Source of the DNA: Vermamoeba vermiformis
Lineage: Eukaryota
Direction: 5' to 3'
Assembly (NCBI GenBank): GCA_045837725.1
Contig: JBEWZL010000179.1
Span: 186,001 to 250,000 of the forward strand
Length of the DNA: 64,000 bases
Position 1 is the stretch's first letter, and each line of letters opens with the position of its first letter. The notes below the pieces were generated by a model. That model saw nothing but the letters and a program-made list of their open reading frames with translations, ran no database searches and was not told the origin of the DNA. This document shows positions 8,441 through 64,000 of this stretch, piece by piece. The position numbers and the translations under genes were made by a program.

Positions 8441-11400
8441 TTACACTTTTTCGATCATTTCAAACACGAGATCACCAGCAGAGACGCTATCTCCTTTGGC
8501 AACCTTCAGGGCAGAGATCTTTCCGGTGAACGGCGCTGTGATGGTGACTTCGAGCTTCATGGCGCTGAGAACGATAACTGGAGTGCCCTTTTCGACTGCT
8601 TGACCAGCCGACACTTTAATATCGACAATTGAGCCGGGCAACGGAGCACCAACGTCGCCACGCTTGTTGGGATCAGCACGAGGTCGTTTGACTTCTTCGA
8701 CTGCTGTCTTGATAGGACCAGCAGAGCGTAAAATGAATGGCAGTAACTGAGGTGCAGCTGCCTTGACGTTGATGACGTGTTGTTGACCATTGAGATCGAA
8801 GGTCACGGGGAAAACACCGTCTTGAGCAGTGTTGCTGACTGAGACCGACTTGGCGGTGAACTGTTGACCCATTTCTTCGAATGTGACTGACTCGCCTATG
8901 CTCAGTGGCGCCAAGAAAGGACGAGTTGGCAGATTGGTGACATTTCCAAACTTCACTTGGTGCTCCATGTACTCCTCGAACACCTTCGGGTACTGCACGT
9001 AACTCATTACATCGACGTCGCGCATCTTACGACCCCATTTGGATTCAAGTTGCTGCTTGCACTTTTCAAAGTCAAGGGGCTTCATATCAGCACCAGGACG
9101 ACCTTGCACGCGTGGTTTATCCTTCAACACGCGGGAACGGAAAGGCTCGGGGAACCCGCCGTGAGGTTGACCCAAGTAACCTTGCAAGTATTCAATAACA
9201 GAGCTGGGGAAGTTGAGCTCTTCAGCCTTGTCCAATGTAGCCTGCTTGTTGAGCTTGTTGGCGACCATAAATGATGCCAAGTCACCGACAACTTTGCTGC
9301 TCGGTGTGACCTTGACGATGTTTCCAAGTATTTCGTTGGCTTCAGCGTAAGCTTGTTTGATTTGTTCCCATTCTTCAGCCAGACCCATAGAAATGGCTTG
9401 GAAGTACAAGTTGGTGTACTGGCCTCCAGGAATTTCGTTGATGTACACGTCAGCACCAGCGCTCTTTTGACCGGATTCGAAAGGAGAATACAATCGGCGA
9501 GTGCCCTCCCAGTAAGTAGTGAGCGGCAACAAGTTCTCGAGCTTAACGCCAGTGTCCTTGTTGGAATTAGCCAGGTCATGAATAATGGCACCCATAGCCG
9601 GTTGAGCTGTCAATCCACTCAACGCATCGTTGCAGCAATCCACGGCATTAGCTCCTGCGTTCACGCAAGCCAACATCGAGGCAACACCAGTTCCGGCAGT
9701 GTCATGAGTATGTACATGAATAGGAATATCCGGGAACTCCTTTCGCAGAGCTGAAATAAGGAGGGTCGCAGCTGTTGGTTTCAATAGACCAGCCATGTCT
9801 TTGATGCACAAAACATGCACACCAAGTTTGACAAGATCTCGTGCCATGTTCAAATAATACTCCAGGTCGTACTTGGTCTTGACCGGGCTGAGAATATCAC
9901 CAGTATAGCAAATAGCAGCTTCGATAATACCACCGGCTTGACCAACGGCATCAATACCAAGTTTCATGTTCTCGATGTAATTGAGCGAATCGAAGATGCG
10001 GAAGACGTCCATGCCCGTGTCTTTAGCTTGCTTGCAGAACTTGTAAATCACATTGTCGGGATACGCAGTGTAGCCCACAGCGTTGGCGCCACGGAAAAGC
10101 ATTTGGAAGGGAATGTTGGGAACGAGCTCACGCAACTCGGCAAGACGATCCCAAGGACATTCGTGCAAGAAGCGCAACGCGACGTCGAAGGTGGCACCAC
10201 CCCAGTTCTCAATGCTGTAGCAGTTGGCCAATGCGTGAGAAGTCGCGCGAGCAATGTTCTTCATGTCGATTGTGCGCATACGTGTCATCAACAATGATTG
10301 ATGTGCGTCACGCCAAGTCGTGTCCGTGAGCAGTGCGCCCTTGTGATTCCTCACTGCCTTGACGAAACCAGCTGCACCCTCCTTGTCAAAGATTTGCTTG
10401 AGACCTGGCGGTGGAGGCTGAGACGAGAATACACTGCCTGAGGGATATTCTGGCGATGCCTTGGGCAACTTAGGATTTGACTTGCTTGGAGCAGGTCCAA
10501 CAGCGCCAGGGTGCTTGGGACCGTTGACAGCCATCTCAGCCAAATACTTCGTGATCTTCAGCGCTTCTTCTGTCGCGCGTTGGGTCTGATTTGTACGTTC
10601 ACGTTCGAGTTTCAATTGGATGTCTTGAGCTTTCTTCTGCTTGGCTCTGAACTCCTGCGTCTCCTTTTCAATAGACTTTAGGAATTGGTTGTACTTCTTA
10701 ACGTCCAACACCTCTTCTTTGAAGTCCAACTTCATTTTGCCGCTGGTGAAGTCTGGGCGTTGACGCTCAAGCTCCTCCTCACTAACCTTCTTGAAACGAA
10801 TTTGATCGAACATGTCAAAGAGCCAAGGTTTTTCGGGGCTGAAGTTAGGCAAGTTACCAGCATTGTTCCAAATCGGCAGCGTACGGCCAACCAATTGATA
10901 TCCTCCAGGAGATTCCATCGAGTAGATGCACATATATTGTCCACCAATACCAACAGCTCCTTCGGGTGTGAATGTTCGGGCTGGATTGTATTTGGGAACA
11001 ACCAATCTGTGTCGAGGATCCAATGGCACTGCACAGGGAGCACCTAAGTAGACGTCTCCAAGACCCAACACCAAGTAACTAGCGTTCAGAACGATGTTTT
11101 CTACATCTTTAGGACCATCAAGTCCGTTGTTCTTCGCTATGAAGTCAACGTTCTCGGGCAAATAGAGAGCTTCCGAACGAATGCTTTTCATGTATCTGTC
11201 GATGGCCTGTCTGTTCCACTTGTCTTGGAATGCAAGAGGAAGAGTGAAAACACGGCTCTTGAGCTTTACGTCGTCTGACTTTGGTAATTCGTCTTCAGCA
11301 GTTGTCAAAATATTCATCAAATCGTTCAACGGTAGTTTTCTGTTATCGTAGTAGATCAGCATGTTACGCACACCGGGGATCGTGTCAATCAGGCCAGTTA

Positions 11401-12959
11401 TTTTCTTCTTGCGGAGGTACTCTTCCAAGAAGTGAATACGAACACGAGTATTAATGTCCAGAACCAGCTCGCCATATTCTACCAAAACATATCTATCACC
11501 AGCAATGCGGTACTCGACCTTGGGACGAGTGGCTGTTGCTTCCATTCGCGTTATTAGAGCGCGATCCCCGTGCTTATTCTCTTTCGATACAGCCACACTC
11601 GGTGCGGAAGCTTTCTTTTCTGATTGAAGCTGAAGAGATGCGATTGAATCGTCAACAGCCTTGCGAGCAGCTAGAGCTTGGTCCATATTTACGCGACGGA
11701 ATTTAATTTTATCGCCGGGCTTGACTTGACCAATCTTCCACATTTGATACGAAGGGATTGTGATAGGACAAACAAAACCGCCTAAACTAGGGCCATCGAC
11801 GGTCAAAAGTACGGGATGATCACCAGTAAAGTTAATCGCACCAATGGCGTAGGGGCTATCGTTGATGTTAGAAGGGTGACTACCTCCTTCACCGCCGTCA
11901 GGACGCGCGAACTTTGGCTTGGATCCATTTGATATTAGGCGCACCCCCAATCGACTGGCATTGTGTGTAACTTCGAAGGTAGAAGTGAACAAGCTAGCAA
12001 TGTCCTCGTTTGTAAAGTACTCTGGAGCCTCTTGCGGACCAAGCAGAACATCAACGTTCCATTCAGAAGTTATTGCTGGGACTAGAGACTTCGGAAGTGT
12101 TCTTTCGGCAGCCTTTGAAGATGGTTTTCCGAAGTACAATTCGTCGTTTGCCTGCAACTGACGACCCTGTTCATTTGTGTTAGAGAAGTCACGATGCACG
12201 ATATTAGCTTAATCTTACATCTGCTCCACCAAACTTGCCCAAAGGGAAAGTTGCTTTGCTTCCCAAGTATTTTGGAACGTCTATACCGCCTGGAACAATT
12301 CATTAGTCAAATTTAAAATTGAGGTGGTACAAAAATGACGTACCAGCAATAGCAAGATAAGTGCGCGCACCGCATCCCTCTATCTTTCCGAGCTTCAATA
12401 CGCTTCCTTTTTTTACGGCCACTGAGGTCCACCAAGGAACAGGTTTACCATCCAAATCTGCCTGCATCTGAGCGCCAGTGATGGCGACGAAAGTATCCTG
12501 ATTGAATTGTATAGTAGGGCCTGTGAAGGATAACTCTAGAGCGGCAGCGCCCTCTTCATTGCCGACAAGCACGTTGGCGAGACGAAAAGAGTAGTCATCC
12601 ATCGGGCCAGATGGGGGTACACCAACTCGCCACAACCCTTCTCGACCAGGGAAATCTTGAATTAAAGAAAAAGTTCCAGGGCTGAGAATTTTTACGGAGT
12701 GATCCGGAAACGCTGGAGACCGCGGATGAACAACTGAATCCGGATTCACCTTTTGTGTTGAATAGCTCGTGTATTGCAAGGCATCTGATGCGCACATTCC
12801 ATTTGAGACTCCACAGGCGTGGAACAAAGCCTTCTTTCTCGCTTTTTCTCGTACACTTTTCTGGATGGACCATTGAAGTCCAGCCCTCAGTGAAGAGCTG
12901 CCCTTATTTAGTGAAAGGTATGTGCCAGGTACCCGAAGACACGCTCTCAGTCCTAGCAT
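8441..12959 (-). CDS. Fusion of urea-carboxylase carboxyltransferase (CT_A_B + CT_C_D), pyruvate-carboxylase carboxyltransferase and biotinyl domain; no biotin carboxylase domain; putative mitochondrial presequence
   Basis: Three exons (~12959-12344, 12289-12219, 12166-8441). UC motifs: QDFPGREGLWRVGVPPSGPMD, HPSNINDSPYAIGAINFTGD, GLGDVYLGAP, KYNPARTFTPEGAVGIGG. PC motifs: TDTTWRDAHQSL, WGGATFDVALRFL, IKDMAG, HVHTHDT, VKVTPSSKVVGD. Biotin-carrier motif SAMKLE. Confidence 0.9.
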
Positions 12960-13750
12960 GTTGTCCGTGTGAGTAAAATAAACGGTTACAAAAAAAAAAT
13001 GTTTATAAAAATCGCGTGCCTCGCTTCTCATTGGTCCGTTCAAATAAATTTGTTTAATTAAACACAATTTTATGTACCTACACATAAATCAATTGTTACT
13101 AGTAACATACCATGCTTCGTCCGTGCGTAGCAAGATCAGTGTAAAAAGTGCTCCTCTAACCTGGCCGAATTATGTGGGACTACAGTAGAGAGGCAAGCCA
13201 AAGGTGTTAACAATTCAACGCACGCTATTGACAGTATTAATAAGGTTCATGTAGCCGAAGCAACAGAAATTACCCTTATCTATTTCTCTCGGAAAGTAAA
13301 ACGAGTTATTTTTCATTAATTAACAAAAAATATATTAATGCGTAGTTAAACAACGATGTTATCTGTTTGTAATATCAATCCACTGTAATATGAAAGATTT
13401 CATTTATTTTGAATTTTCTTCATAATTATTTATAATACCTTTTTGCCGAAGAGGGTTACGTTTTTAGAGCATGGACGAGGAAAGTATTTGTTCGTGGTTA
13501 TGGCGGTAGAATACGAAGGTCTACAAAAACTGACAAACGTGTTTGATCTTTGGACACCTGTTGTGCATAATAGTATTTCGAGCGCTAGCCTTGTTGAGAC
13601 ATTGATTTAATTAAATTGTATCGCATTTATGTCACACTGAAGTCGAGTACACCACATGTATATCATCAACACTATATAAATAACACATATATCACAAAAC
13701 TAGGTTGCTCGAATTACAGATCTGACACTTTTTTGTTGCTAGTAACATCG

Positions 13751-14787: not shown

Positions 14788-16939
14788 TTAAGGAGTGATA
14801 CCGAGTTGCTTGTAGGCAGTGGCGATCTTTTGGATGGCGCTAACGAAGGCAGCAAGTCTCAAAGAGCAGTTCTACAGGACACGACATTAGTGGCCAGTTC
14901 TAATGTACATTGCAGTGTTGTAATACATACCTTTTCGTGAGAGATGGCGCGAACTTGTTCGTAAGCAGTGGCCATAGTGTCCAAGAGACCAGAGCGGACC
15001 AAATCCAACTCTTCAGGACCACGAGGAGTGATCTTCTTGTGAGCAACGTGCTCAAGGGTATCAGTGATCTCCTTGATTTGGGCCTCAGTGAATCGCTTAG
15101 TCTATTATAAAAAAAAAGCGCGGTTAGTAACGGTAACAAATAGTTCTGGATCTTCACTCCACTTACCAAACGACCGAAGCGAACGTGTTGAATGTTCTTC
15201 AACCACTCGAAGTATGAGACGACGACACCACCAGCATTGCAGAGAATGTCGGGGATGATAAGAACACCCTTGTTGTAGAGGATCTTGTCGGCGTCAGCAG
15301 TGACGGGACCGTTGGCACCTTCGGCGATGAGCTTGGCCTTGATCTTGTGAGCGTTGTCCTTGGTGATTTGACCTTCGAGGGCAGCAGGGACGAGAATGTC
15401 GCAGTCGAGTTCGAGACCTTCAATGGAGGGGATGATGACAGACTTGGCGCCGGGGAACTTGTTGAGCTCGTTGCCCTTCTCCTTCCACTCCCACAAAGCA
15501 GGGATGTCAAGACCTTCGGGGTTGTACAAGCAGCCGTTGGCCTCAGCGATGGCGACGACCTTAGCACCGTTCTCGTGCAAGAACTTGGCGCTGAAGGAGC
15601 CGACGTTACCGAAACCTTGAACGACAACACGCTTGCCAGCAATACCAGGGGTGAGACCCATCTTCTTGACGTCATCAGCGTAGCTCAAGGCCTCACGGAC
15701 GGCGTAGAAAACACCGAGACCGGTGGCTTCGTTACGACCACGAACACCTCCTTGGGTCACAGGCTTACCAGTGACGCAAGCAGTGGCGTTCAAGTCCTCG
15801 CTGCGCATAGCCTCATAGGTATCCTTGATCCAAGCCATTTCACGGGGACCAGTACCGACGTCAGGGGCGGGCTAGGAAACAAGTTTAGGTAAGAAACGAG
15901 GTAGTTTCGTAATGAGGCCTAATACTTACGACGTCGAGGGCAGGGCTGAGCATGTTCTTCTTGATCAACTCAGAAGCATAACGACGAGTGATAGCTTCCA
16001 ATTGGCCAGCGTTGAACTTGCGGGGGTCAATCTTAACACCACCCTTGGCACCACCGAAGGGAACATCGACAACGGCGCACTTGTAGCTCATGAGAGAAGC
16101 CAAAGCGACGACTTCCTTCTCGGAGACGTGAGTGCTGAAGCGAATACCTCCCTTCATGGGCAAACGGTGAGGGCTGTGTTGGCATCTCCAAGCCTCAACG
16201 AGGGTAGTGTCGTGAGTGCCAGTTTTCTGAACGGAATGGGGTTAATCGCGGGTAATATAATTAATTATAATTAATTTTAAAATATTAAATATAAATTTGT
16301 GCGCTAAAGTGGTAGACAGAAAATTGGTAAATCTTGAGCTTAATCCACTTACGGGGTTGTAGTCCATCTTGACGGGGAAAGAAACCTTGTAGACGGAGCG
16401 GCAGACTCTAGAAAGGGCGATTGTCAGTATAAGGGCACATAAGGACGCAATCTAAGCCTACCTGATAACATCCAAAATGTTTTGAGGAATCTCGGGCAAG
16501 AGCTTGGCAGCCTCGTTGAAGAAATGCTCGGTGGAAGCCAAGAAGGTGTTGTCATCAGGAGCACCAGTGTTTTGAGCGTTGCGCTTGGCCGAAACGGTGA
16601 AGCTGCAAGATTTGACCGTTAGAAGATGCATTGAATTAACTCTCAAAAATTAGCAAGAAAATCCACGAAAATGTGGTCGGATAGGTATTCAGTCGATCTT
16701 TAGATTAGTGGGGTGGGTAAATTCATTCAGATGAAAGGAAATTAATTAACCGCAACCCTATATCAAGTGCGACACTGTAAGGCGGGCGATCAATACCTTC
16801 GAGTGGCAGTCTTGGAGGTAGTACCAACCAAAGCGGTCTTTAAATACAGAGCTCCGTTAGTCAAGGGATGGGGTAGTTTGAGGTGTTTCGTGTCACTTAC
16901 GCTGCGCTTGGAGGTTTGGCGAAGAACTTGCGAGAGCAT
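14788..16939 (-). CDS. GDH: Glutamate dehydrogenase, NAD(P)-dependent, probably mitochondrial; multi-exon
   Basis: Motifs [57 protein letters not shown] and [15 protein letters not shown]. Arg/Ser-rich N-terminus [13 protein letters not shown]. Confidence 0.95.
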
Positions 16940-19271: not shown

Positions 19272-21092
19272 ATGGAACCGTACGTCTTGGTACAAAACGT
19301 AGTGATTAACTAATTATACCATTAGATCGTTTCAGACGACTCTTAACTCCGGTGGTACGGGACAGGTAGTTTCCCTTCTTCAACGCCGTAGTGAGCGAAG
19401 GCTAATTGAAGAGCCGAAACCTGCGGATGCGGACCCGCAGCCCAACTTAATTTCTCGGCTAGCAACGGCGCCGGACCATTCTGATGAAGAGTCGAAGACA
19501 GCGCCGATTTCTCGCCAGCCATCATTATTAAAGAACGTAGCTAATTCAGCAGTTGCAGATGATGACCCCTCAGCGAGTGATACAGACTCCCAAATTAATT
19601 TAATTACACGACGAAATAGTTTCGTAAAAGACTCACTATTAGGAAAAAGCGCTAATAATGAGGCACCTAGTTCTCGAGCGGTTAAATTTAAGAAGTTCAG
19701 GAAACAGTACCTGAAATCCATACCCGCTTGGGAAAAGAAATTAAATGAAATGGAAACTGTCGGAGGAGCTGTACTACGATTTTGCGACTCATTTTTTCGT
19801 GGAGTTTCACAGGTAATAATAAAACGTAGACTTTTGATAAAATTATTAATAAATTTATCCAGATCGGATTCGTTAATAACCCGCTCTTTGGAGTTGCAAC
19901 AATACTTATAGCACTGATAACAGAGTAAGCGCAAAAGCACCTTAAATATTGTTTGCTCATTTTTAACTCATTCATTATAGTACGTGGATCGCAACTTGCG
20001 GTATCGTGGGTTGTTTTTGTACAACTTTATTCGCGGCAGTGGGAGGTCTGAAGAAGGAAATTTTTAGGTCAGTATTACTATTTAACACGGCCAAAGAGCT
20101 TAAGATTTGCCAGAGCTGGCCTATTCGGGTTCAATGGTTATTTGCTGGGTGGAATTATGGGAATTTTTATACTCTCACCATGGGACTGGCGGACCATCAT
20201 TGTTATTATTGTGCTATCGCCGGTGACTATCGTACGTGATGATCAAATAGTAGCGAGGTCGTCAACTAACAAAGGAAATTTAGGTCTCTCAAATTGCGTT
20301 CAGTCACATCTTCGTGTCTTTTGATTCACCGCCCTTTGGACTGCCTTTAATATTAGTGCTCAATTTCTTCTTCTTGGCTACATACGGGTCTGGTTATTTC
20401 CGACCAGTGGGGTTCACGCCGCAGTCTCCGAGTGTTATTGAACCAACGCAAGAAGTGCGAGCTGATTATATCTTTGAGTCGCTAGGCTTGTGCATCGCCC
20501 GTATATTCTTTGGATCCAATCCGTGGACGTAAGTACAGTCCCTAAGGATCTTAGCTTTGAATATCAGTATTAACATTAGCACAGGGGTATTGCGTTCCTG
20601 CTCATGCTATTTCTCTACACTCCGTGGCACGGAATTGCTGCAGCTACTGGAGCAGTGCTCAATACACTCACGCTGTACTTACTCGGCGTCAATTCTGATT
20701 TCATTGCGACTGGTTTGTGGGGCTGGAACGCTACTTTGATATGTACGTCATTAGCGCTTTATCGCGGTGCACCGATCACTGACCACTAATGTTCAGGTAT
20801 CGCCCTCTTTGGTGAGTTTTTGGCGCACTCGTGGCAATCTTGGGTATATTCAGCATACGCAGTGATTGCAACGACTATTGTGCACGTCGGGTGCTCGCCA
20901 TTGTTCAAAGTGTTTGGCATACCGGAAACGAGTTTTGCATTCAGTATTGTGGGCATTGTATTCATGGCAGCACGTAAGAGTCTGCCAGGCTTGCAAGAAA
21001 ATGTCGTGGAGCAAGTTCCAGTCGACTCTGTTGCCGCACGCAGACAAGCCTTCTCACGTCGTCGTGCAGTGTCACGTTTTATGAAACTATAA
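19272..21092 (+). CDS. Urea transporter (UT/SLC14 family) with long hydrophilic N-terminus; multi-exon
   Basis: Spliced FCDSFFRGVSQ|IGFVNNPLFG matches the UT RGxxQxxFVNNP signature. The second repeat has LCIARIFFGSNPW and GLWGWNATL; there is also a PFGLPL motif. The start codon is inferred from a micro-exon at 19272. Confidence 0.85.
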
Positions 21093-21119: not shown

Positions 21120-21731
21120 TTAATAACCAAATGCATCGGTCAAAGCTACGCAATCAATTTGAAACAAAGCTCCTTTAGGCAGATCCATCACGCATATTGT
21201 CGTACGTGCAGGTTCTTCGCGGTTGAAAACTAAAGGAGGTTAATTTCAAAATAAGGCTAGAAAACCACGTACATGATTGATATACAGAATCTACTTGGTC
21301 ATAGTCTTTCATGTTGCGCAAGTACATCGTAACTTTTACAACGCTGCCCAGTGACGAATTTCCAGCCGTGACTAACAATAACATATTGTCGATAGCCTGT
21401 ATAATGGTAACTATCTGTATTGTCATTGTTTTGTTTTACCTTCTTAACTTGCTCCTGCAATTGGTCGCTGACCAGCTCTCCTTTCTGATAAAAATATTAG
21501 CAACGTCCCAGGTAAAGTTATTAATAAATTTATTCATTAATAAATATTCAATACCTTATTTACGCCAATACATCCGGAGACGTACAGGAATCCGTTCGCC
21601 TTTATTGCTTGGCTTTTTTGCGCATCCAAGTTAATTGCGTAAATAAGAATTATATTCTCCTCTTACCTGTAAGGGCGAGTCACTAGCGCGACCTTCTTTG
21701 TAGTCACTACGCTACGAATTGGCTTACTCAT
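21120..21731 (-). CDS. RidA/YjgF/UK114 family imine deaminase; multi-exon
   Basis: Spliced PYSQAIKANGFLYVSGCIG, VVKVTMYLRNMKDY and EEPARTTICVMDLPKGALFQIDCVA, with the catalytic Arg of PAR present. Confidence 0.88.
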
Positions 21732-27707: not shown

Positions 27708-29266
27708 ATGCAAGCAACTAAGTTGATACAACGAGTTTATTCAACCGCTGCTAGCTCGATTCGAGATGCAATCAAAGCGTCTAATAACGCAGTCATCGAG
27801 AAGTTGCAATCTCCTGAGCTCTACCTGACAGACGTAGCGCCAGCCAAAGATTATATACCGGCCATTGCGAATAAAAAAGTTATATTGGCCTCTGGACCAC
27901 CAGTGGAGTGGCAGAAAAGACACGAAATCCAAAAGGGCGCCATAATTGGTCAAGTACTCTTTGAGAAGTGGGCAGACAATTCCCAAACAGCTCGCAAGTT
28001 ACTAGATGAAGGCACAATCGTGGTAGAAAGTTGTAACGAACACAACGCGGTTGGTCCACTCACCGGTACAATTAAATAATAAATTGATTTTAAATTTAAA
28101 ATTATCTCCGCTAACAGATTACTTAGGAACGATATCCCCCAACTTTCCAGTATTTGTAGTCGAGAATAAAAAGCACGGTACTCGTTCTTTCAGCAGAATC
28201 GCCGAAATGTGGGAGATGTGGGGAAACCACGATAAACTTCCGAATCTACTATCTTGGAATGAAAGATATGCGCCTGCATTGCAAAGAGCACTTCGAAGCA
28301 TGAAAGGAGGCCTCTATTTGAACCCTTTATTAGCCCAAGCTCTGGAAATGGGCGATGACAACGGCAACAGACAGATCGCACTCACGCTGCTGCTGAACAA
28401 CAGTTTGGCCTTGCATATGCTCAACAACGGCTTTACTTCAGGTACGTAGTGTGCTGACTACACTCCTCGCTCACTGGCCTGGCAGATGACATTCGCACAG
28501 CCCTCGAAGTGCTGAACATTCCCAGTGGGGGCGGCGGAGGTCCCCGCGCTGTGATAGGCATATCAATGGCTGCAGCCAAAGCAGCGATCATACCCGCTGA
28601 GAACACACCCTACTCGACCATTGTCACGAACATGGCGCGCAATGGTGCACTGTGGGGCATTCAAGTCGCAGGTCTGGGCCAGCAGTGGTTCACAGTGCCA
28701 GCACCCCTGCCCAACGTCGTCAACTTCCACGACAATCCCAACACGAGTAAGTGCGACTAGTGCGTGAGTGCGCGACTAACCAGTGCTGCAGAGGTGCCCT
28801 ATCAGCAGTCAGATCGTTGTCCAGACATCGGTGGCGATGCGTCCATTCACGAGACCTTTGGATGGAGTGGCATGGCACTCTCAGCGGCCTCACAGCGCTT
28901 CTTGACCATGCTCGGAGACTTGACTGTCGAACAGGCATTTGCGTACAACAAAGAGGTATGTGAAGTGACAGGCTGCAATGTACTGACACGCGACAGATGC
29001 AACACATCAGCACTGGTCTCTCCAGCAAGTTCTTCGTGCCAGCACTCGGCAGCAAGACCATGATTGGCTGTGCACTGGGCATTGATGCTGCCAAAGTGCT
29101 CAAGTCAGGCATTGCACCGCTGATTGACACTGGTGTGGCCAACAAACAGCTCGGCCACAGCGTCATTGCGCGAGGTCTCATTCGTGCACCCATTGCGTGC
29201 TTCGAACAGGCACTCACCGCCTATTGTGAGCGGTACAAGACTAGCCTCGACTCGTTGCTCAATTAG
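27708..29266 (+). CDS. DUF1116 (YlbE/AllG/YahG-like) family protein, divergent copy; multi-exon
   Basis: ILASGPPVEW, GAIIGQVLFEKWA, CNEHNAVGPLTG, ALEMGDD-GNR, VTNMARNG, DIGGDASIHETFG and GIDAAKVLKSGIAPLIDTG are colinear with the DUF1116 half of the 44985-48212 gene. Confidence 0.85.
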
Positions 29267-44088: not shown

Positions 44089-44149
44089 AACACTTGTAAT
44101 TATTGTAAAACTTATTTATTGTGCTCTAACTGTTATGTACTGGTGCGTA

Positions 44150-44770
44150 TTAACTGCCGCGATAAGTGCTGAAGCCGTAAGGACTCAATATGAGTGGTAT
44201 GTGATAGTGCTGCGCGAGATCTGACTGCTTGAGCTCGAAGATGATCGGCACTTTCGGGTACAAGAAGTGTTGGATCTGCTTGTTGTCAAAGTACTCCGCA
44301 GTGTAGAAGGTCATGCGATAACGTCCTACTCCTGGCAATGTCACACCAAAGTCCTTGCTCGTTACACGTCCATCCGCGCTTGTCACGCCACTCGCCAACA
44401 ACTGCCACTTGCCTAATTTAATTAATGAGTAAAATAATGGCATAACTATATGCTTGCTTATTGATGAAAATTCGGCTACGTAACGTGATAATTAAATTGG
44501 AGAAGTTCAATTTCAATAATTAATTTAACACAACAGCGTAGTTAATTAATTACCTTGTTGATCTTTAATGTGTAATTTCAAGCGCAATCCGCTCGCAGGT
44601 TTTCCACTCTGGGTGTCAAGCACATGCGAGGAGATGGTGGTCTGTTTCTCCGTATTGTGCGTAGCAGACTGCTCAATATGTGCAGAAGAGTGATTAGTTG
44701 CCATATTGCTCACACTGGGTGCAATGTGTCCGAGTATTGTGTGCAGTCGTGTTGCTGCGTTGTGTTGCAT
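44150..44770 (-). CDS. URAH: 5-hydroxyisourate hydrolase (transthyretin-like) with PTS2; 2 exons
   Basis: ISSHVLDTQSGKPASG, DGR, HYHIPLILSPYGFSTYRGS* (YRGS signature). N-terminal RLHTILGHI fits the PTS2 consensus. Confidence 0.95.
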
Positions 44771-44984
44771 GTTTGGCAATGAGTTCAATACCGTTGAAGG
44801 GCTTGATACTGAATAGAGCAAGGCACCGCTCATCAATGCTGTACTCATATTTAATGCCATGCAGGTAACGGATAACGCAGCTCGATATCTCAGAATACGA
44901 ATCGACCACGTGATTTCAGGTACAATATTTTATTTTAGTTTTGTGCATAAATTTATCTTTAGTATCCCACAAAACTGCACTATC
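44771..44984. promoter_or_regulatory. Putative bidirectional promoter between HIU hydrolase and the FdrA-DUF1116 fusion
   Basis: Only ~214 bp separate two divergent start codons. It contains a CACGTG at 44907 and an AT-rich tract; function is inferred from geometry. Confidence 0.5.
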
Positions 44985-47900
44985 ATGGCACATCAAGGCA
45001 TTAAAGTGTTGAAAGACACGTACAGAGACTCGGTGGAGTTGATGCAAATCGCATCTGGCCTCGAACGGTCCTTTAAAGGAGTGAAGGCTTCTGTGATGAT
45101 GGCAACTCCCGCATTTGTAGAACTACTTGCCAAAAGTGGAGTAGATGTGCCTGCTGAATTAGCTGCCAATGATTTAATCATCCATGTGAAAGCGGATGCA
45201 CCAGACGTTCTCCAAGCAGCACTGGAGAGCGGCGTCAAATCGATCACAGAAAACAAGAGCGCTAGTGCTCACGAGTCCATGGAAGTACCAAAGCCCACTA
45301 CTATAGCAGAAGGAAGCAGTATTCAAGGAGGTTCAAATTTGGTGCTGATCTCGGTGCCTGGTCAGTACGCGACAGCTGAAGCGATGAAAGCACTCAAACG
45401 AGGTGCGCACGTGTTCATGTTCAGCGACAATGTGCCACTCGAAGATGAAATTGAGCTGAAACAGTTCGCCCAAGAGCGCCACTTGCTGCTGATGGGTCCT
45501 GACTGCGGCACGGCACTCATCGACGGACTGCCCCTGGGATTTGCGAATGTGGTTCGCAAGGGGTCGATTGGTCTCGTGGGTGCATCGGGCACGGGACTGC
45601 AACAAGTGTCGAGTCTGATCGATCGCTACGGACACGGTGTGAGTCAGATGATTGGCGTGGGGGGCCGTGACTTGGACGATGCAGTGGGCGGTGCGATGAT
45701 GTTGCAGGCCATGCAGCGTCTCATGCAAGACCCTGCCACCGCCGTCATCGTGCTCGTGTCCAAGATACCGGGCACGCACGTGACTGCTAAGATCTACGAC
45801 CTCGTGCGCCGCTCACCCAAGCCAGTGGTGGTCAACTTCTTGGGCGGTGATCCACAACCCATATTAGGCAGTGGTGGCATCTACGCCGCGACACTCGAGG
45901 ACGCAGCGCTGCTCGCAGTCAGTGTGAGTGAAGGCAAGCCCCGTGTCCGCGACAGCACTCCATTGACAGCAGTGCCATCACGCGCTGGTCACGTGCGCGG
46001 TCTGTACAGTGGTGGCACCCTGTGCAAAGAGGCCAAGCTGATCTTCCAGCAGACATTGGGTGCGGAGGCCGCACAGCACACACTGATCGACTACGGTGAG
46101 AGCGAGTACACCGTGGGCAAGGCACATCCCATGATTGACTTCAGCACGCGCAATGCAGAGCTCGTCAAAGCTGCGGCAGATCCGAACACTTCCGTCCTCT
46201 TGTTCGATGTGGTGCTCGGATATGGCGCGAATATGGACCCCGTTGGTCAACTAGCCCCTGCATTGATGGCAGCCACTGAACTGCGCAGCAAGCAGAATCG
46301 ACCAATCACATTCATTGCTTCGGTGTGCGGTACTGCCTCAGATCCGCAAGACATGCAGCAGCAATCAGACAGACTCGCACAACTAGGGGTTATATTGGCC
46401 GCATCCAATGCTGAGGCTGCGAGACTGGCGCTGTTCGTCGCTACAGGCCAGCGTGTCACACCCGCAGCAGTGTCGCTGAACAAGAGCCGTGCAGCGAGTG
46501 CAGCAGTGCAGAGCAATCCGCTGTTGAAGGAGATTAAAGCACTCAATATCGGACTGAAACACTTCGCAGAGCCGATCAGCAAGAGTGGCGGTCAAGTGCT
46601 GCAACTCGATTGGAAGCCACCAGCAGAGGGCCACCGAGCACTCGGACTGCAGCTGGCACGCCTCGAGGACGACAGTGCGGGGGTGGGTCAGAGAATCAAA
46701 CTGGCCAATGACGAGGCCTTGCAACGACTGCAGAAAGGACTGCCCGTGTGGACTGGTGTGGCACTGGCGCGCGAGGTGATACCAGGCATGGGCACACGCA
46801 CCATCCTGCACAGCGGTCCTCCAATCACGTGGCGCGCCATGTGTGGTCCGATGAAGGTGAGTACTGCCAGTGCGTGCATGACGTGTTGACACGTGTCACA
46901 GGGTGCGGTGATTGGTGCCATTCTGTACGAGGGCTGGGCGCAGAGTCCTGAAGAGGCAGAACAGCTCGCAGCACGCGAGATCAGCTTTGCACCATGCAAC
47001 GATCACCACGCAGTCGGTCCCATGGCAGGCATCATATCGCCCAGCATGCCCGTCGCCATCGTGGAGAACAAGACATTCGGCAACAAGGCCTACGCAACCT
47101 TCAACGAGGGACTGGGTCGTCGATTGCGCTTCGGTGCGTACGATGCGAGTGTGATGGAGCGACTGCACTGGATCCGGAACGTGCTCGCCCCCGTGCTGCA
47201 ACAGATCGTCGCTGCACACCCGATTCAGCTCAAGACCATACTCGCACAAGCACTGCAGATGGGCGATGAGTGTCACAATCGCAACACAGCTGCCACGTCA
47301 CTGCTGACACGTCACCTCGCCCCGCTGCTGTTGAGCACGGTGCGCGACACGAGTCAGGTGCTGTCCATCCTCGAGTTCTTGCGCGACAACGACCACTTCT
47401 TCTTGAACCTCTCCATGGCCTGTTCCAAGTGCATGCTGCAGGCTAGTGCGGACATGGACGCGAGCAGTCTGGTCACCATCATGAGTCGCAATGGCGTCGA
47501 GTTTGGCATTCAGATGAGTGGCACGGGCAACACGTGGTTCACCGCGCCCTCACCCGTGGTGGACGGACTCTACTTCCCAGGTACGCGGTGCACTGTGCGC
47601 GAGTGTTGCTGATGTGTTGACAGGGCGTACCAAAGCTGATGCCAATCCCGATCTGGGCGACAGCAGCATCACCGAGACAGCTGGCTTTGGTGGCTTTGCG
47701 ATGGCAGCATCACCCGCCATTGTTCGCTTCGTGGGTGGCACGGCGCACTCAGCCCTGCAACACACGCTGCGCATGTACAAGATCACACTCGGTAAGAATC
47801 CTGACTACGCCATTCCGAGTCTCAATTTCAGTGGCATCCCTCAGGTAAGCACTGGGCGCTGCATTACATAGGACTGCACCATGGACTCACGTGCGCTGAT

Positions 47901-48212
47901 CAGGGCATTGATGCACGTCGCGTGGTGGACAGTGGCATTGCGCCAGTGATCAACACGGGCATTGCACACAAGCAGCCAGGCATTGGACAGGTCGGGGCGG
48001 GCATTGCACTCGCACCACTCAGTCCATTCGCAGCCGCACTGGGCGCACTCAGCAGCAGACTCCTGCACAAGACCTCGCAGCACAAGAACACGCGTGCCTA
48101 CTCCACGCAGATTGTGCGTCGTCACGTGCCTGGCCACACATTGGTGGTGCGCAGAACAGCTGTGGCGTCAGTGCTGCGCGTGTTGAAGCGTGCGGTGACA
48201 CTGCTCAAGTGA
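44985..48212 (+). CDS. FdrA(AllF)-YlbE(AllG, DUF1116) fusion; succinyl-CoA-synthetase-like fold plus DUF1116; putative oxamate carbamoyltransferase-like enzyme; 4 exons
   Basis: FdrA motifs: YRDSVELM, ISVPGQYA, MFSDNV, MGPDCGT, GASGTGLQ, GVGGRDL, GLYSGGTLC, HPMID, DWKPPAEG. DUF1116 motifs: LHSGPPI, HHAVGPMAG, NEGLG..LRFGA, ALQMGDECHNRN, NDHFFLNLSMA, MSRNG, DLGDSSITET, NTGIAHKQPGIGQVGAG. Confidence 0.9.
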
Positions 48213-48265
48213 AGTACGTTGTAAAGGGAACTAGTGTATTTGAAAATAATACAAGACGGGGGTAA

Positions 48266-49206
48266 TTACATCTTAGACTTGGGCTTGGTGATAGTCGCGT
48301 GAATGAAGCCGCTCGGTTCATCGACGGGAATGAGCAGATCCGGTGTGTTTTCGAGCTTGAGCTTGGTGAAGTCGATCGTCCAGTTGTGAATGTTGGGCAT
48401 GGTCAGCGTGATGTTCTCAACTTGCGCGAGACGAGTGACGACCTTCTCGCCCGCAGAGTGAATGGTGCGCTGCACTGAAGGGCTGTACTCTGTCGCAAAG
48501 GTGCTGAACACCAGCGCGAGCACTTTGTTCCACGTGTCATTGAAGTCCACTGACTTGTAGCCACCGCGCACTGCTTCGGGGGTGTAGGTCCACACTGCTT
48601 GGACCTTGGTGCCGAACAATCTGTCAGCAACATCAGGCAGAGTGGTGTAGCGGCAGCGATGGAAGTTTTCGAAGCCAGATCCAGTCGTCTTGAGCACTTG
48701 CAAGTCGCGCACACCAGATTCGACCACTGCTGGGGCTCCACGAGGGGCGCTAATCTTAGCGGTGCGCACATACATAGCCTTCACGAACGAATGACCGTGC
48801 GGCTTGCCGTTGACGGGCATGCGCTCCCAGATGTCCTCCGTGATCTCAACATTGACTTTCTTTACGTGGCTGTATTCGCTGAGGAATTTTGCCGCCAATG
48901 CTTGACCATACTCTTCGATTGACTTGATGGGGTGGTCACGGGCAACAACGTAACTGAATTTAATTAAATTAGTAACAATTTTCATGAAATAAATTCAGGA
49001 TGGAGTTTTATGACATACACCATGTTTTTGCAGGTATCAGTAGGAACGACTTGAGAGTTGTCATCAGAGGTAAAACTCTTCTGGAAATCTCCTTCCAACA
49101 AGACTGCAACGTTGAGTTGCTTCAAGTCGTGATTTTCCTTGGAGTGGCGCGTGACCTTGACCAAGCGGACCTTGATCTTGCCGTAAGTATCGTAAGTAAT
49201 GGACAT
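48266..49206 (-). CDS. UOX: Urate oxidase (uricase) with PTS1 (SKM); 2 exons
   Basis: YGKIKVRLVKV, DNSQVVPTDTCKN, VLKTTGSGFENF, TLPDVADRL, SPSVQ and MPNIH; ends KSKM*. Confidence 0.96.
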
Positions 49207-49533
49207 GATTGCGGTGTTGTGTGAGTGTTGTGCTTGATGTTGCAAAATAGAAAATACCTGTTCGGCAAAGAATGGACGAAAAAGAATGTTTGGAAAAAAT
49301 CGGCGCTTCGTTCAGTGAAACAAACAGATTGCGATGGAGATTGCGAAAGAAGGCGTCTTAACATTAAGCATTCAGTACAGTGCCCCTAGCCATGTGTATA
49401 TACGTGGATGAAAGAGACGTGCGTTGTGAATCAATATTATACATTTATTCGGGCGCCGCTAATGAAATCTCTGCTAGTAGTCCCAGCGCATATATGCTTG
49501 AGTATACGCTATACTAGATATAAGACTAGCAGC

Positions 49534-50292
49534 TCACTTCAACTTCTTGCTGCTAGCATTCAACAAACTGAAGTAGATGTTCCACACCAGGGCCACCAAG
49601 TTGGAGAAGAGCACTTGGAGGTTGAGTGGCACGTAGCGGAAGTTGATGTACTGCGCCAAGGGCCATATTTTCAACTGCGCCACGACCATGCGCAACATGT
49701 TCTGCGAGATCTGAGTGTGCAATTTGTACCAAGTGCCTTCGAAAAGCGCGATCCAGCTCCAGAATAATACAAAGAGTGCAGGAGTGAATACTAGTTGATG
49801 CAGGGCTATTTTGAGCACGACTGTAACGGGAGTCTGGTGTAATTAAGCAGAATTAGCGCACTGCAGCGCGGTGTTTGAAATGGATCGTACCGTGGGGAAA
49901 CGACTGAAAACGTGATTTAAGAGCTTGTACCAATAATGTACTAATGGTCCTGTAACCACCAAGCCAAAGGAACCTGAACAACTCTGTTAAGATCGCGGAG
50001 TAATATTTCATTCATAGTCGAAATAATTATTCGCAGCGATTATTATTCATATTATTCAATGTGCACAGAGGTCGTACCAAATTTAATGGTGCGCATGACG
50101 TCCAATTTTTTGTTGCCGGCAATCTCTTGCGCAATAACATCACCCACCACATTGGTCACTGCCGATGTGATCGCCTTAATATTCATTAGTTATATATTAT
50201 GAGACCACGGTAAATATTACTTTAGTTTTGATTGGATGTTGATTCAGGTAGTTCAAGTAAAATTGCCAAATTGTCTTCAGCTGTGCTGCCAT
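49534..50292 (-). CDS. Mpv17/PMP22 (PXMP2-like) family membrane protein; multi-exon
   Basis: YLNQHPIKTKAITSA, GDVIAQ, GPLVHYWYKLL, HQLVFTP and WPLAQYINFRYVPLNLQVLFSNLVALVWNIYFS. Confidence 0.9.
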
Positions 50293-59459: not shown

Positions 59460-60006
59460 CTACTTGTTGGCAGTAGCAGCCATCTTATCGAGTTCAGCTT
59501 GAATCGCTTCGACGGTCTCGCTCACCACAATGTCGAGTTGTTGTAGCGCATCCGTGGCCTCTGTCACGTTACCGTCTTTGCAGGCTATTTCAATGGTAAA
59601 TGCCAATGTTTGCAGCTGTCAATAAAGGGAGTTAAAATGAATGTTACTCGAGTAACAAATGAACAGCGGAAAACTGGTGTTTGTGCGACAGATTCAAGGA
59701 CGCGTGTCAAGATCAAGAATAAATAGGGTTGCAAAACACAAATTACATAAAAAACAAATGCACGTAGTCGCTCTAATTGCGTACCCTTTTAGCAGCAACA
59801 GAGCGGGCTGCTCCTTTAATTGTGTGGGCTTGAACTTCGGCTTCCATACGCAAATCTCTTGCAAGGAAACGCTTTAAAGTACCAATATCTTCAGGTATTT
59901 GTTGCATGAATGACTTCAATATTTCTTCTGCAATTTCTGCATCTCCTCCTGTAATATCATTCAATTCGTCAATACAAATAATTTCGTCTCCTCCTTCGTC
60001 AGCCAT
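59460..60006 (-). CDS. Histidine phosphotransfer (Hpt) protein; 2 exons
   Basis: ELNDITGGDAEIAEEILKSF and the phospho-His motif AHTIKGAARSVAA. Exon 2 reads LQTLAFTIE...AATANK*. Confidence 0.88.
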
Positions 60007-60525
60007 GATAATAATAGTGCTGGGTGATTTTGAATTAATTATTGGTGATAGACTGTCAGTGAATGGTTGCCAATTAGACTGTCAAGTAATAATTATGCAG
60101 GTTGAGAGAATGATGCGTATTGAAATAAGCAGTAATTGGAAGTCTGAAGGGAGTCTTTGGAACCAATTACTTATTGTAGTTACTTCAATACTTTGAGCGA
60201 AGAACAGCAAAATTTTTTTGTTGGGTATATCCTGGAGAATCGGTAAACGATCGAGATACACGCGAAATCTCGTGCAGCTATCTCCGTTACAAACGGCGAA
60301 TCACATGATTTTCTCGGCTTGCAAAGAAAGAACACAAACTCAATGGCTGCCGTAGAAATTTGGCTTGTGGGTTTTGGTACTGCCTGCGGTTTATTTTATT
60401 TTATTAACAACCGTCAAGCACCGTACAACCAGTCGGATCCGATCCAACGCTGCTTTCTCGTTCCATCAAACGATAAAATTAAACGCTAGACGCTTCGGAG
60501 GAACGAGTTTAGTTAAAACAAAACT
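60007..60525. promoter_or_regulatory. Putative bidirectional promoter between Hpt and the poly-HAMP kinase
   Basis: ~520 bp AT-rich spacer between divergent ATGs. Confidence 0.4.
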
Positions 60526-63500
60526 ATGGATCCTCTAGAATTATTGAAGGTAATCATTACGTTATTTTAATTTTGAATTATTTTGTTTTGTATTTATGCT
60601 GAAATGATATTGCAACAATTTTAATTCGAGTGTACCCTCATAAATCATAAAAAGAGACTGCTTGTTGATTCTGTTTCTGGATAATATAATAACTGCTTAA
60701 TCGTTAGTGCTTGCACGCACTCAGAGATGGAGACTTTTCAGTGCGGTTATCTGCCGCAAGTTCAGGAGCAGCCAATGCTTTACCAGATGATATTTCACGC
60801 GAGATCGCAGCAGCTTTTAATGATGTAGCCTCCAGACATCAAGCTTTATTATCAGAATTACAACGAGTAAGCACAGCAGTTGGCAAAGAAGGAATTATTA
60901 CAGAACGAATGGACATGCATCCACTGGGAGACGACGAAAAACCTATTCAATTAGAAGGAGATTGGTCGGAGTGCTTTGAATCAATCAACGTATTAGTAGA
61001 AGACTTGACTAGACCCACTACCGAAGTTGTAGGCGTGGTTGAAGCAGTCGCCAGAGGAGATTTGACAAAAACAATGAGATTGGATTCAACCGGTATCCCT
61101 CTGAAAGGTAATTGACAGCAAATACTGCATCAATTCCTTAATTTCTGTTCTTTCGATTGTACTAACCGACATTTTGCCAGGTGAATTCTTGCGAATGGGT
61201 GTCGTGGTCAACACCATGGTCAGCGAGCTCAAGGTGTTCGCTTCTGAAGTCACTCGTGTGGCCCGCGAAGTCGGTGTCGAAGGCAAGCTCGGCGGTCAAG
61301 CCAACGTGAAGGGCGTTGCTGGCACTTGGAAAGATCTCACAGACAGTGTCAACATTATGGCTGCCAACTTGACCTCTCAAGTACGTGCCATTGCCGAAGT
61401 CACAACTGCAGTTGCTCGAGGCGACTTATCAAAGAAAATCACAGCCGACGTGCGAGGCGAGATTTTAGAACTTAAGAACACAATCAACACGATGGTCGAT
61501 CAGTTGAACTCTTTTGCTTCTGAAGTCACTCGTGTCGCTCTAGAAGTAGGAACTCAAGGCAAACTTGGTGGCCAAGCCAACGTCAAGGGCGTAGACGGAA
61601 TTTGGAAAGATCTCACTGACAATGTAAATATTATGGCTGCCAACTTGACTTCCCAAGTCAGAGCTATTGCTAAGGTTGCTACCGCCGTCGCCAACGGAGA
61701 TTTATCGAAGAAGATTACTATCGACGTACATGGAGAGATCTTAGAGCTCAAGAACACCATCAACACGATGGTCGACCAGTTGAGTACCTTTGCTCGAGAA
61801 GTCACTCGTGTCGCTCTTGAAGTCGGAACAGAAGGCAAACTCGGTGGCCAGGCTGTAGTGAAAGGAGTTGGTGGAACCTGGAAAGATCTCACTGACAATG
61901 TAAATATTATGGCCGCCAACTTGACCTCTCAAGTACGTGCCATTGCCGAAGTAGCCACTGCTGTCGCCAACGGAGATTTATCGAAGAAGATTGCCATCGA
62001 CGTGCACGGAGAGATCTTAGAGCTCAAGAACACCATCAACACGATGGTCGACCAGTTGAGTACCTTCGCCCGAGAAGTCACTCGTGTCGCCTTGGAAGTA
62101 GGAACAGAAGGCAAGCTCGGTGGTCAAGCCATTGTGAAAGGTGTTGGTGGAACCTGGAAGGATCTTACTGACAACGTCAACATTATGGCTGCCAACTTGA
62201 CTTCTCAGGTCAGAGCTATTGCTGAAGTAGCCACTGCTGTCGCCAACGGAGACTTGTCCAAGAAGATTACTATTAATGTCCATGGCGAGATTTTAGAGCT
62301 CAAGAACACCATCAACACGATGGTCGACCAGCTGAGTACCTTCGCCCGAGAAGTCACTCGTGTCGCTCTTGAAGTCGGAACAGAAGGCAAACTCGGCGGT
62401 CAAGCCATTGTGAAAGGCGTCGGTGGAACCTGGAAAGATCTCACAGACAACGTAAATACGATGGCTGCCAACTTGACCTCTCAGGTCAGAGCTATTGCTG
62501 AGGTAGCCACTGCTGTCGCCAATGGAGACTTGTCCAAGAAGATCACTATCGACGTACTCGGTGAGATTCTAGAACTTAAGAATACCATCAACACGATGGT
62601 CGACCAACTGAGTACCTTCGCCCGAGAAGTCACTCGTGTCGCCTTGGAAGTCGGAACAGAAGGCAAGCTCGGCGGTCAAGCCATTGTGAAAGGAGTTGGT
62701 GGAACCTGGAAAGATCTCACTGACAATGTGAATACGATGGCTGCCAACTTGACGGGACAGGTGCGTGCCATTGCCGAAGTGACAACCGCAGTAGCCAACG
62801 GAGACTTGTCCAAGAAGATTACGGCTGATGTCCAAGGAGAGATCTTGGAGTTGAAGAACACAATCAACACCATGGTCGACCAACTTAACACCTTCGCCCG
62901 AGAAGTCACTCGTGTCGCCTTGGAAGTCGGAACAGAAGGCAAACTCGGCGGTCAAGCCAACGTCAAGGGCGTCGGTGGAGTCTGGAAGGATCTCACTGAC
63001 AACGTCAACATTATGGCTGCCAACTTGACTTCTCAAGTACGTGCTATTGCTGAAGTCGCCACTGCAGTAGCCAACGGCGATCTTTCAAAGAAGATTACTA
63101 TCGACGTACTTGGTGAAATCTTGGAGTTGAAGAACACAATCAACACGATGGTCGACCAACTTAACACCTTTGCTCGAGAAGTCACTCGTGTCGCTTTAGA
63201 AGTCGGAACAGAAGGCAAACTTGGTGGCCAAGCCAACGTGAAAGGTGTTGGCGGAGTCTGGAAAGATCTAACCGACAATGTAAATATTATGGCTGCCAAC
63301 TTGACCTCTCAAGTCAGAACCATTGCCGAAGTGACAACCGCTGTTGCGAGGGGAGACTTGTCCAAGAAGATTACAGCTGACGTACGCGGTGAAATCTTGG
63401 AGTTGAAGAACACCATCAACACGATGGTCGATCAACTGAGTACCTTCGCCCGAGAAGTCACTCGTGTAGCCCGCGAAGTCGGCACAGAAGGCAAACTTGG

Positions 63501-64000
63501 TGGTCAAGCCAACGTCAAGGACGTGGCAGGCATTTGGAAGGGTCTTACCGACAATGTCAACACGATGGCTGCCAATCTAACGAACCAAGTACGTGCTATT
63601 GCTGAAGTAGCCACTGCTGTCGCCAACGGAGACTTGTCCAAGAAGATCACTATCGACGTACATGGAGAGATTCTAGAACTTAAGAACACCATCAACACCA
63701 TGGTCGATCAACTGAGTACCTTCGCTCGAGAAGTCACTCGTGTCGCTCTTGAAGTCGGAACAGAAGGCAAGCTCGGTGGCCAAGCCATTGTGAAAGGAGT
63801 TGGTGGAACCTGGAAAGATCTCACTGACAACGTCAACACGATGGCTGCAAACTTGACTTCTCAAGTACGCGCTATCGCTGAAGTCACCACTGCAGTAGCC
63901 AACGGCGATCTTTCAAAGAAGATTGCAGCTGATGTCCAAGGAGAGATCTTAGAGCTCAAGAACACCATCAACACGATGGTCGACCAGTTGAACTCTTTTG
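60526..64000 (+). CDS. Poly-HAMP sensor, N-terminal part of a group III (Nik1/Os-1-like) hybrid histidine kinase; runs off the window
   Basis: MDPLELLK micro-exon, then [13 protein letters not shown]. An open frame from ~61181 repeats [65 protein letters not shown]. The kinase core is not visible. Confidence 0.85.
61240..64000 (+). repeat. Coding tandem array of 276-bp (92-aa) HAMP repeats, at least 10 units
   Basis: GAAGTCACTCGTGT recurs every 276 nt (units begin near 61240, 61516, 61792, 62068, 62344, 62620, 62896, 63172, 63448 and 63724). Confidence 0.95.

Follow-up and report, generated by a model that had tools for sequence, protein, structure and literature searches.

A gene fusing homologues of the bacterial proteins FdrA/AllF and AllG (DUF1116) lies between the genes for HIU hydrolase (HIUase) and uricase in a 64,000-nt stretch of the Vermamoeba vermiformis genome (contig JBEWZL010000179.1, positions 186,001 to 250,000; hereafter the window, with coordinates counted from its first letter). 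Judged by its sequence, the fusion is an intact, constrained and host-adapted gene of ancient bacterial-type origin. Our reading of its function, held with about even confidence, is that of an acyl-urea phosphorolytic carbamoyltransferase in a compact peroxisome-type urate-oxidation neighbourhood, loosely tied to urate catabolism.

An AllF-AllG fusion gene between HIUase and uricase

The window has the character of eukaryotic DNA: its introns are short (43-141 nt across the gene models built) and of GT..AG type, and the neighbouring genes are typical of eukaryotes, among them those for myosin, PSME4, a DEAD-box helicase and an LRR-filamin protein. Within 44150-50292 the gene order is HIU hydrolase (-), FdrA/AllF-AllG fusion (+), uricase (-) and a Mpv17/PMP22-family gene (-), and in-frame models of 189, 1026, 291 and 184 aa, respectively, were built for all four. 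The four identities, the adjacency and the bacterial character of the fusion proposed in a first-pass annotation of this DNA are borne out.

The fusion is encoded in four exons, all of whose introns are GT..AG (Table 1). Its Pfam matches are to CoA_binding (1.3e-8), Ligase_CoA (3.8e-34) and AllG/PF06545 (7e-89; 297 bits against a cut-off of 27), and matches to known structures comprise 3DMY (FdrA) with exon 1 (4.9e-84) and 3CLQ with the AllG core (7.3e-59). The NCBIfam model NF004760 scores 487.6 bits, above its cut-off of 433. With the same model, the E. coli paralogue YahF scores 487.7, the FdrA of bacterial locus L006 scores 494 and E. coli FdrA scores 1043; the match therefore indicates membership of the subfamily and not orthology with AllF, since YahF and L006 score alike.

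Near-invariant columns, defined from 35 bacterial rows, are kept by the fusion at 60 of 63 positions over its full length and at 58 of 61 within exon 1, His381 in GKAHPMID among them, and the re-aligned AllG part keeps all 42 of 42. The GC content at third codon positions (GC3) is 0.64, inside the 0.50-0.70 range of ten other coding stretches of the window, and on this host-like value a recent transfer was rejected. The introns are predicted because homology to fused relatives runs exactly across every junction, because a relative of 80% identity (P0002) breaks at the same site as the 45-nt intron 1, and because a 7-nt deletion at 47852 in the strain behind RNA contig set X5 falls within intron 3. 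Both a 99%-identical strain and the 80%-identical relative retain the frame and the intron site.

The basic, Ser/Thr-rich tail of the fusion (48080-48212, +) has counterparts of similar character in the fused homologues P0003, P0004 and P0148, and none in bacterial AllG; the last three residues of such tails are two hydrophobic ones followed by lysine (LLK, FFK). The motif R-x-Y-S-T is common to the tail of the fusion, that of P0003 and the leader of AllG2, a second AllG gene of the window described below.

The flanking genes were assigned by the same means. HIUase matches the Pfam family Transthyretin/HIUase (PF00576) at 44150-44443 (-) with 6.1e-23 (82 bits against a cut-off of 25.3), and its first exon gives a weak match (3.4e-4, profile positions 1-27); exon 2, the only part scored with TIGR02962, reaches 85 bits, just below the cut-off of 87.45. 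Pfam Uricase matches fall on both uricase exons, within 48266-49245 (-), the 291-aa model stays in frame, and exon 2 alone passes the urate-oxidase equivalog cut-off (NCBIfam TIGR03383; 237 against 168.4). The introns of both genes are supported by spliced contigs of X5 and X6 alike, at junctions 44411/44553 for HIUase and 48953/49019 for uricase; contigs of these sets likewise support introns in the two genes that border the cluster. Downstream, the PMP22-like gene matches Mpv17_PMP22 (PF04117) at 49534-49818 (-) with 1.2e-18 (67.3 bits against 27); all three of its introns are supported by spliced contigs, in X6 only, and its start codon lies at 50292, where the first-pass annotation had ended its cluster.

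Uricase ends in SKM, which we take to be a type 1 peroxisomal targeting signal (PTS1)-like terminus, and the N-terminal extension of HIUase carries the nonapeptide RLHTILGHI, presumably PTS2-like by its consensus; the YRGS end of HIUase is, we assume, the C-terminal signature of that family. SKM and RLHTILGHI are probable peroxisomal signals and would fit a module, and the PMP22-family neighbour, whose product may be peroxisomal or mitochondrial, is also consistent with a peroxisome-type urate module. The fusion has no PTS1 and ends in LLK.

With HIUase starting at M1 (44860), 124 nt separate its start from the ATG of the fusion, and 214 nt with a start at M31 (44770); 53 nt lie between the stop codons of fusion and uricase, and the uricase ATG is 327 nt from the stop codon of the PMP22 gene. 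These distances reproduce the ~214, ~53 and ~330 bp given at first pass, the first of them counted from M31. The accompanying description as operon-like was overstated: because the genes are divided between the two strands and unrelated neighbours stand just as close together (the RNA contig of the left neighbour ends at 44100 and that of HIUase begins at 44123), compactness is a trait of the genome and not of this locus. Even so, chance is unlikely to bring two successive enzymes of urate oxidation within two genes of each other, on our own rough estimate of ~4/gene number for the uricase/HIUase adjacency. A second record holding both uricase and fusion is a 16,180-nt contig of the same species, as its 99% identity indicates.

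Table 1. Features of the urate locus and of AllG2 (window coordinates).
Feature	Positions	Strand	Remarks
HIU hydrolase exon 2 (C-terminal part; protein ends YRGS)	44150..44411	-	Pfam PF00576; spliced contigs
HIU hydrolase exon 1 (~75-aa N-terminal extension)	44553..44860	-	weak Pfam match; spliced contigs
Divergent spacer between HIUase and fusion start codons	44861..44984		AT-rich
Fusion exon 1 (whole FdrA/AllF part, CoA_binding + Ligase_CoA; linker; start of AllG)	44985..46856	+	
Fusion exon 2 (AllG/DUF1116 core)	46902..47580	+	PF06545; PDB 3CLQ
Fusion exon 3 (DANPDLGDSSITE...GG motif region)	47624..47844	+	frame and motif agree with P0003/P0004
Fusion exon 4 (AllG end and ~45-aa basic tail ending LLK)	47904..48212	+	
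Uricase exon 2 (protein ends SKM)	48266..48953	-	PF01014, 8.4e-41
Uricase exon 1	49019..49206	-	PF01014, 5.4e-10
Mpv17/PMP22-family gene (4 exons, 184 aa)	49534..50292	-	PF04117; X6 contigs
PMP22-like exons	49534-49833, 49891-49971, 50076-50173, 50220-50292	-	
AllG2, stand-alone AllG/DUF1116 paralogue (5 exons, 455 aa)	27708..29266	+	~16 kb upstream of cluster
AllG2 exons	27708-28065, 28127-28441, 28486-28746, 28792-28955, 28997-29266	+	GT..AG model

Relatives of the fusion and their gene contexts

Four fused homologues were present among the 120 best word-indexed matches, and at least nine fused proteins of ~950-1095 aa among the best 150 representatives. Two clusters of fused homologues carry EukProt labels, Stenamoeba stenopodia (an amoebozoan) and g2359.t1. 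Several fused homologues (998-1023 aa) are encoded on intron-free contigs of ~3.07-3.09 kb with little else on them, which makes these contigs mRNA-like, and the unlabelled fused rows are presumably eukaryotic as well. Other fused architectures include a Cupin_7 tail in P0147 and, in P0133, an AllG domain that is joined to NmrA and lacks the FdrA part.

Phylogenetic analysis used two maximum-likelihood trees, a main one of 48 rows and 1000 columns under LG+C20 PMSF and a reduced one of 28 rows under LG+G4, both of them quick searches with long branches and compositional warnings. In both trees one clade (Shimodaira-Hasegawa-like approximate likelihood-ratio test, SH-aLRT, 100) takes in E. coli AllFG together with all loci that carry allD/allC/allE. 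The window fusion falls outside it and groups with L006 and the other fused rows of eukaryote-like type (SH-aLRT 96 and 94). Identity of its AllG part is 56% to L006 and 54.5% to L001. Holding nine eukaryote-like fused rows as one clade improved the likelihood by 15 units (p 0.75 in the approximately unbiased, AU, test), which is consistent with a single old acquisition. The AU test did not reject a tree in which the eukaryote-like group is the sister of the allantoin clade (delta lnL 12.2, p 0.30). On these trees, the fusion does not count as an ortholog from within the AllFG clade, and its deeper affinity may be with either the AtzD-linked or the allantoin-linked systems.

Bacterial single-open-reading-frame (ORF) AllF-AllG fusions also occur, within the allantoin-type clade (for example L005, L008, L011, L014 and L023). 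In the gut-type loci L005 and L008 this ORF encodes 1014 aa (9195-12236 in L005) and adjoins allD, a cupin, an OTCase-like gene and carbamate kinase, with only a weak AllH-like match nearby.

Gene contexts were compared across 49 metagenome loci with relatives of the fusion, which look prokaryotic where examined, and the E. coli allF-K and yahE-I regions; they were typed by tblastn, with Pfam applied to five loci and NCBIfam to selected ORFs of L001, L006 and L013. The nearest bacterial relative, L006, encodes AllH, FdrA, AllG, carbamate kinase, a xanthine/uracil permease and a PucR regulator. L001 resembles it in having AllH, FdrA, AllG, cyanuric-acid amidohydrolase and PucR, and the ring-opening amidohydrolases of L006 and L001 pass the NCBI equivalog cut-off for cyanuric-acid amidohydrolase (AtzD; 527/553 against 360). 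L013 and L041 contain AllH, carbamate kinase, allophanate hydrolase, an amidase and an isochorismatase-like gene. In comammox Nitrospira metagenome-assembled genomes (MAGs), allFGHK is reported beside the triuret/biuret genes trtA, biuH and atzF (PMC12625717). We infer that these contexts share the acyl-urea group R-CO-NH-CO-NH2, found in oxalurate, in the ring-opening product of cyanuric acid and in biuret/allophanate.

A conserved ORF of ~460-480 aa, matched by neither Pfam nor NCBIfam, stands directly upstream of AtzD in both L001 (7984-9360, following AllG) and L006 (6779-8224, following carbamate kinase).

Candidate chemistry and competing explanations

In the reading that we favour, an ancient bacterial-type AllF-AllG fusion, its AllF part of succinyl-CoA-synthetase-alpha-like fold, is embedded among peroxisome-type urate genes and would catalyse carbamoyl transfer between an acyl-urea (R-CO-NH-CO-NH2) and phosphate. 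Phosphorolysis of the acyl-urea would give carbamoyl phosphate, by which nitrogen, and possibly ATP, could be recovered from ureido compounds. Candidate substrates are oxalurate or another acyl-urea from urate oxidation, of the carboxybiuret/biuret/triuret class. We infer the chemistry, the substrate, the localisation and the functional coupling to uricase, the carbamoyl transfer because of homology with E. coli AllFGH, the only characterised member. Uricase generates peroxide. Peroxide oxidation of urate is reported to lead to triuret and cyanuric acid (PMC7948467). The handling of urate-oxidation by-products, which the first-pass annotation had raised as its second possibility, suits the fusion as well as, or better than, a main-line route through oxalurate. 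E. coli AllFGH interconverts oxamate plus carbamoyl phosphate and oxalurate plus Pi and was measured in the synthetic direction (PMC11326118), which agrees with what the first-pass annotation had stated of this enzyme.

Several results weigh against this reading. In X5 and X6, uricase reaches a depth of 87-237 (110 in X5 and 237 in X6 for the spliced contigs of exon 2), against a range of 3-30 for HIUase, 0-27.5 for PMP22 and 0-7 for the fusion, and co-expression of the cluster members was not seen in these two sets. The two X5 contigs shown that cross predicted fusion introns 1 and 3 are unspliced and may represent DNA carry-over or pre-mRNA; the only fusion contig shown from X6 lies inside exon 2. 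The raw RNA runs X21 and X23, labelled as the same species as the window but too thin at 90 and 99 reads in total (95-99% identity, mostly at the uricase 3' end) for its expression to be judged, give zero depth on the fusion. No 7-9-mer is common to at least three of the four upstream regions compared (HIUase/fusion, uricase, PMP22 and AllG2).

Partner genes and linkage count on the same side. In the window, AllH (PF11392/DUF2877) was found neither in Pfam scans of 215 ORFs nor by tblastn, the queries being AllH and YahE of E. coli and AllH-like ORFs from seven loci, and the AllH domain is present in 0 of 12 fused homologues. None of AllD, AllC, AllE and carbamate kinase occurs in the window, and OHCU decarboxylase did not turn up in its Pfam scans. 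The E. coli activity needs all three of AllF, AllG and AllH, and AllFGH is the only family member with enzymology, a transcarbamoylase type identified as late as 2024 and studied in E. coli only (PMC11326118). Uricase, HIUase and PMP22 appear in none of the 49 metagenome loci. In the uricase search, the best match after the same-species P0279 (99% identical) is 50% identical and lies on a 971-nt contig; a word-matching, length-limited and hence weak search revealed no close uricase in the 80%-identical relative.

As a separate observation on the upstream regions, CACGTGAT was considered as a cluster signal and rejected: it is present in two of them, but occurs 26 times in the window against 2.95 expected. 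It often forms the palindrome ATCACGTGAT and is scattered over the whole window, with no tie to the cluster.

The first-pass annotation had tentatively assigned the fusion to an oxalurate/oxamate branch. As a true oxamate carbamoyltransferase, it would act downstream of uricase and HIUase on a route from allantoin through ureidoglycolate and oxalurate to oxamate and carbamoyl phosphate. The fusion does share both of its families with E. coli AllF and AllG and adjoins the first two steps of urate oxidation; the sister position to the allantoin-type clade that the AU test left standing (p 0.30) and the bacterial single-ORF fusions within that clade speak for it as well. It lies, however, outside the fully (100%) supported allD/allC/allE clade, its NF004760 score is that of the uncharacterised paralogue YahF and not of E. 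coli FdrA, AllH is missing from the window and from the 12 fused homologues, AllD, AllC, AllE and carbamate kinase are missing from the window, and no co-expression appears in X5/X6. We consider such an enzyme rather unlikely; of the earlier interpretation, the identities, the adjacency and the bacterial character stand, and the specific oxalurate/oxamate branch is not supported.

It is also unlikely, if far from negligible, that uricase, HIUase and PMP22 form a real peroxisomal module and that the fusion beside them serves an unrelated pathway or substrate, brought close by a gene-dense genome. Tight spacing is general in the window, expression of the fusion is uncoupled from that of uricase in X5/X6, the compared upstream regions have no promoter motif in common, the LLK end is not a PTS1, uricase linkage occurs in 0 of 49 loci with relatives, and homologues have other partners (Cupin_7 in P0147, NmrA joined to AllG in P0133). 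Yet chance would hardly place the fusion precisely between two successive urate enzymes, all bacterial contexts found concern ureide, purine or triazine nitrogen catabolism, and genes for a urea transporter, glutamate dehydrogenase and a further AllG paralogue lie in the same window. That the fusion is instead a silent or decaying relic without present function would suit its near-zero RNA depth, the unspliced intron-crossing contigs, the lack of X21/X23 reads on it and the AllH partner not found in the window. We regard this as very improbable: the frame is open across four exons, the conserved residues are kept (60/63 and 42/42), the 99%-identical strain and the 80%-identical relative preserve frame and intron site, and full-length intron-free contigs of ~3.07-3.09 kb, mRNA-like in other organisms, encode homologues of 998-1023 aa.

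A bolder proposal, which we think quite unlikely, is that the fused AllF-AllG, perhaps with AllG2, could be the missing poly-urea enzyme of amoeboid protists, with coupling to the peroxide-generating uricase inside or at the peroxisome. It would then pass carbamoyl groups, in a reversible reaction, from carbamoyl phosphate to urea, biuret or carboxybiuret, and triuret, a crystalline nitrogen store of freshwater amoebae, would be built or mobilised. Triuret crystals are reported in freshwater amoebae, and the same paper calls triuret biosynthesis unknown (PMC7948467). The proposal is compatible with four results: a fused homologue is labelled as amoebozoan, L006 lies beside a cyanuric-acid hydrolase, other relatives lie beside biuret/allophanate genes, and AllFGH was measured in the synthetic direction.

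The carbamoyltransferase reading that we prefer would bring a known enzyme system into a eukaryotic, fused and intron-bearing form beside urate-oxidation genes. If active, the fusion would provide a eukaryotic phosphorolytic route that saves purine ureido nitrogen as carbamoyl phosphate, beside the textbook urea and ammonia endings. The bacterial contexts suggest that the family acts on acyl-ureas generally (oxalurate, carboxybiuret/biuret and perhaps ureidomalonate), which would caution against naming every member "oxamate carbamoyltransferase". Literature searches found no publication placing FdrA/DUF1116 proteins in eukaryotes, the DUF1116 papers that mention eukaryotes being bacterial by title, and none joining oxalurate with uricase and peroxisomes, or barbiturase with carbamate kinase.

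AllG2, other window genes and known systems

AllG2 is recognised by PF06545 (4.2e-17 on one exon) and by collinear tblastn matches to bacterial AllG, and is 34% identical to the AllG part of the fusion. It keeps 29 of 42 near-invariant columns, the 13 lost including two histidines, a glutamate and a serine, and may be a non-catalytic partner. The gene is conserved: the relative P0313 matches its exon 1 at 74% identity, and the upstream neighbour is the same there. Its short N-terminal leader, MQATKLIQRVYSTAASS, resembles a presequence. AllG2 was tried as a homologue of the ~460-aa ORF of L001/L006, and tblastn gave no match.

Further nitrogen-metabolism genes of the window are glutamate dehydrogenase (14903-16241, -), a multi-exon UT-family urea transporter (~20052-21092, +) with three collinear Pfam matches, and a RidA/L-PSP-like gene (21175-21662, -). 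The gene at 8444-13088 (-) combines CT_A_B and CT_C_D carboxyltransferase domains, of 5-oxoprolinase/urea-carboxylase type, with HMGL-like, PYC_OADA and biotinyl domains, and Pfam detected no biotin-carboxylase domain in it, an unusual architecture. Near the right end, an Hpt-domain gene (59776-60081, -) adjoins one whose product has 10 or more HAMP repeats (60708-63999, +), which resembles a group-III-type hybrid histidine kinase and runs off the end of the window.

Among prokaryotic systems, L006 and L001 have AllF and AllG as separate genes with AllH upstream and neither uricase nor HIUase, whereas the window gene is fused and stands amid both. The allFGHK cluster of the comammox MAGs is prokaryotic, is linked to its pathway from gene order only, and is described without a eukaryotic case in the accessible part of its report (PMC12625717); like the window, it links AllFG to urate/purine oxidation products and not to allantoin enzymes, and L013 and L041 are similar. 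E. coli AllF-AllG-AllH with AllK shares with the window gene the same families (NF004760; PF06545), the near-invariant residues and a purine-catabolic neighbourhood. Unlike E. coli AllFGH, the window gene encodes one fused polypeptide, has introns and a ~45-aa basic C-terminal tail, is without AllH, AllK or AllD nearby and falls outside the allantoin-type clade; it adjoins aerobic uricase and HIUase, whereas E. coli AllFGH sits with anaerobic allantoin genes.

Among eukaryotic systems, the peroxisomal urate pathway consists of uricase, HIU hydrolase and OHCU decarboxylase, and the yeast DAL cluster provides a case of clustered allantoin genes. The window differs from them in the bacterial-type candidate carbamoyltransferase inserted among its genes and in yielding no OHCU decarboxylase to our scans, but resembles them in the PTS1-like end of its uricase, in the presence of HIUase and a peroxisome-type membrane protein, and in the adjacency of its catabolic genes.

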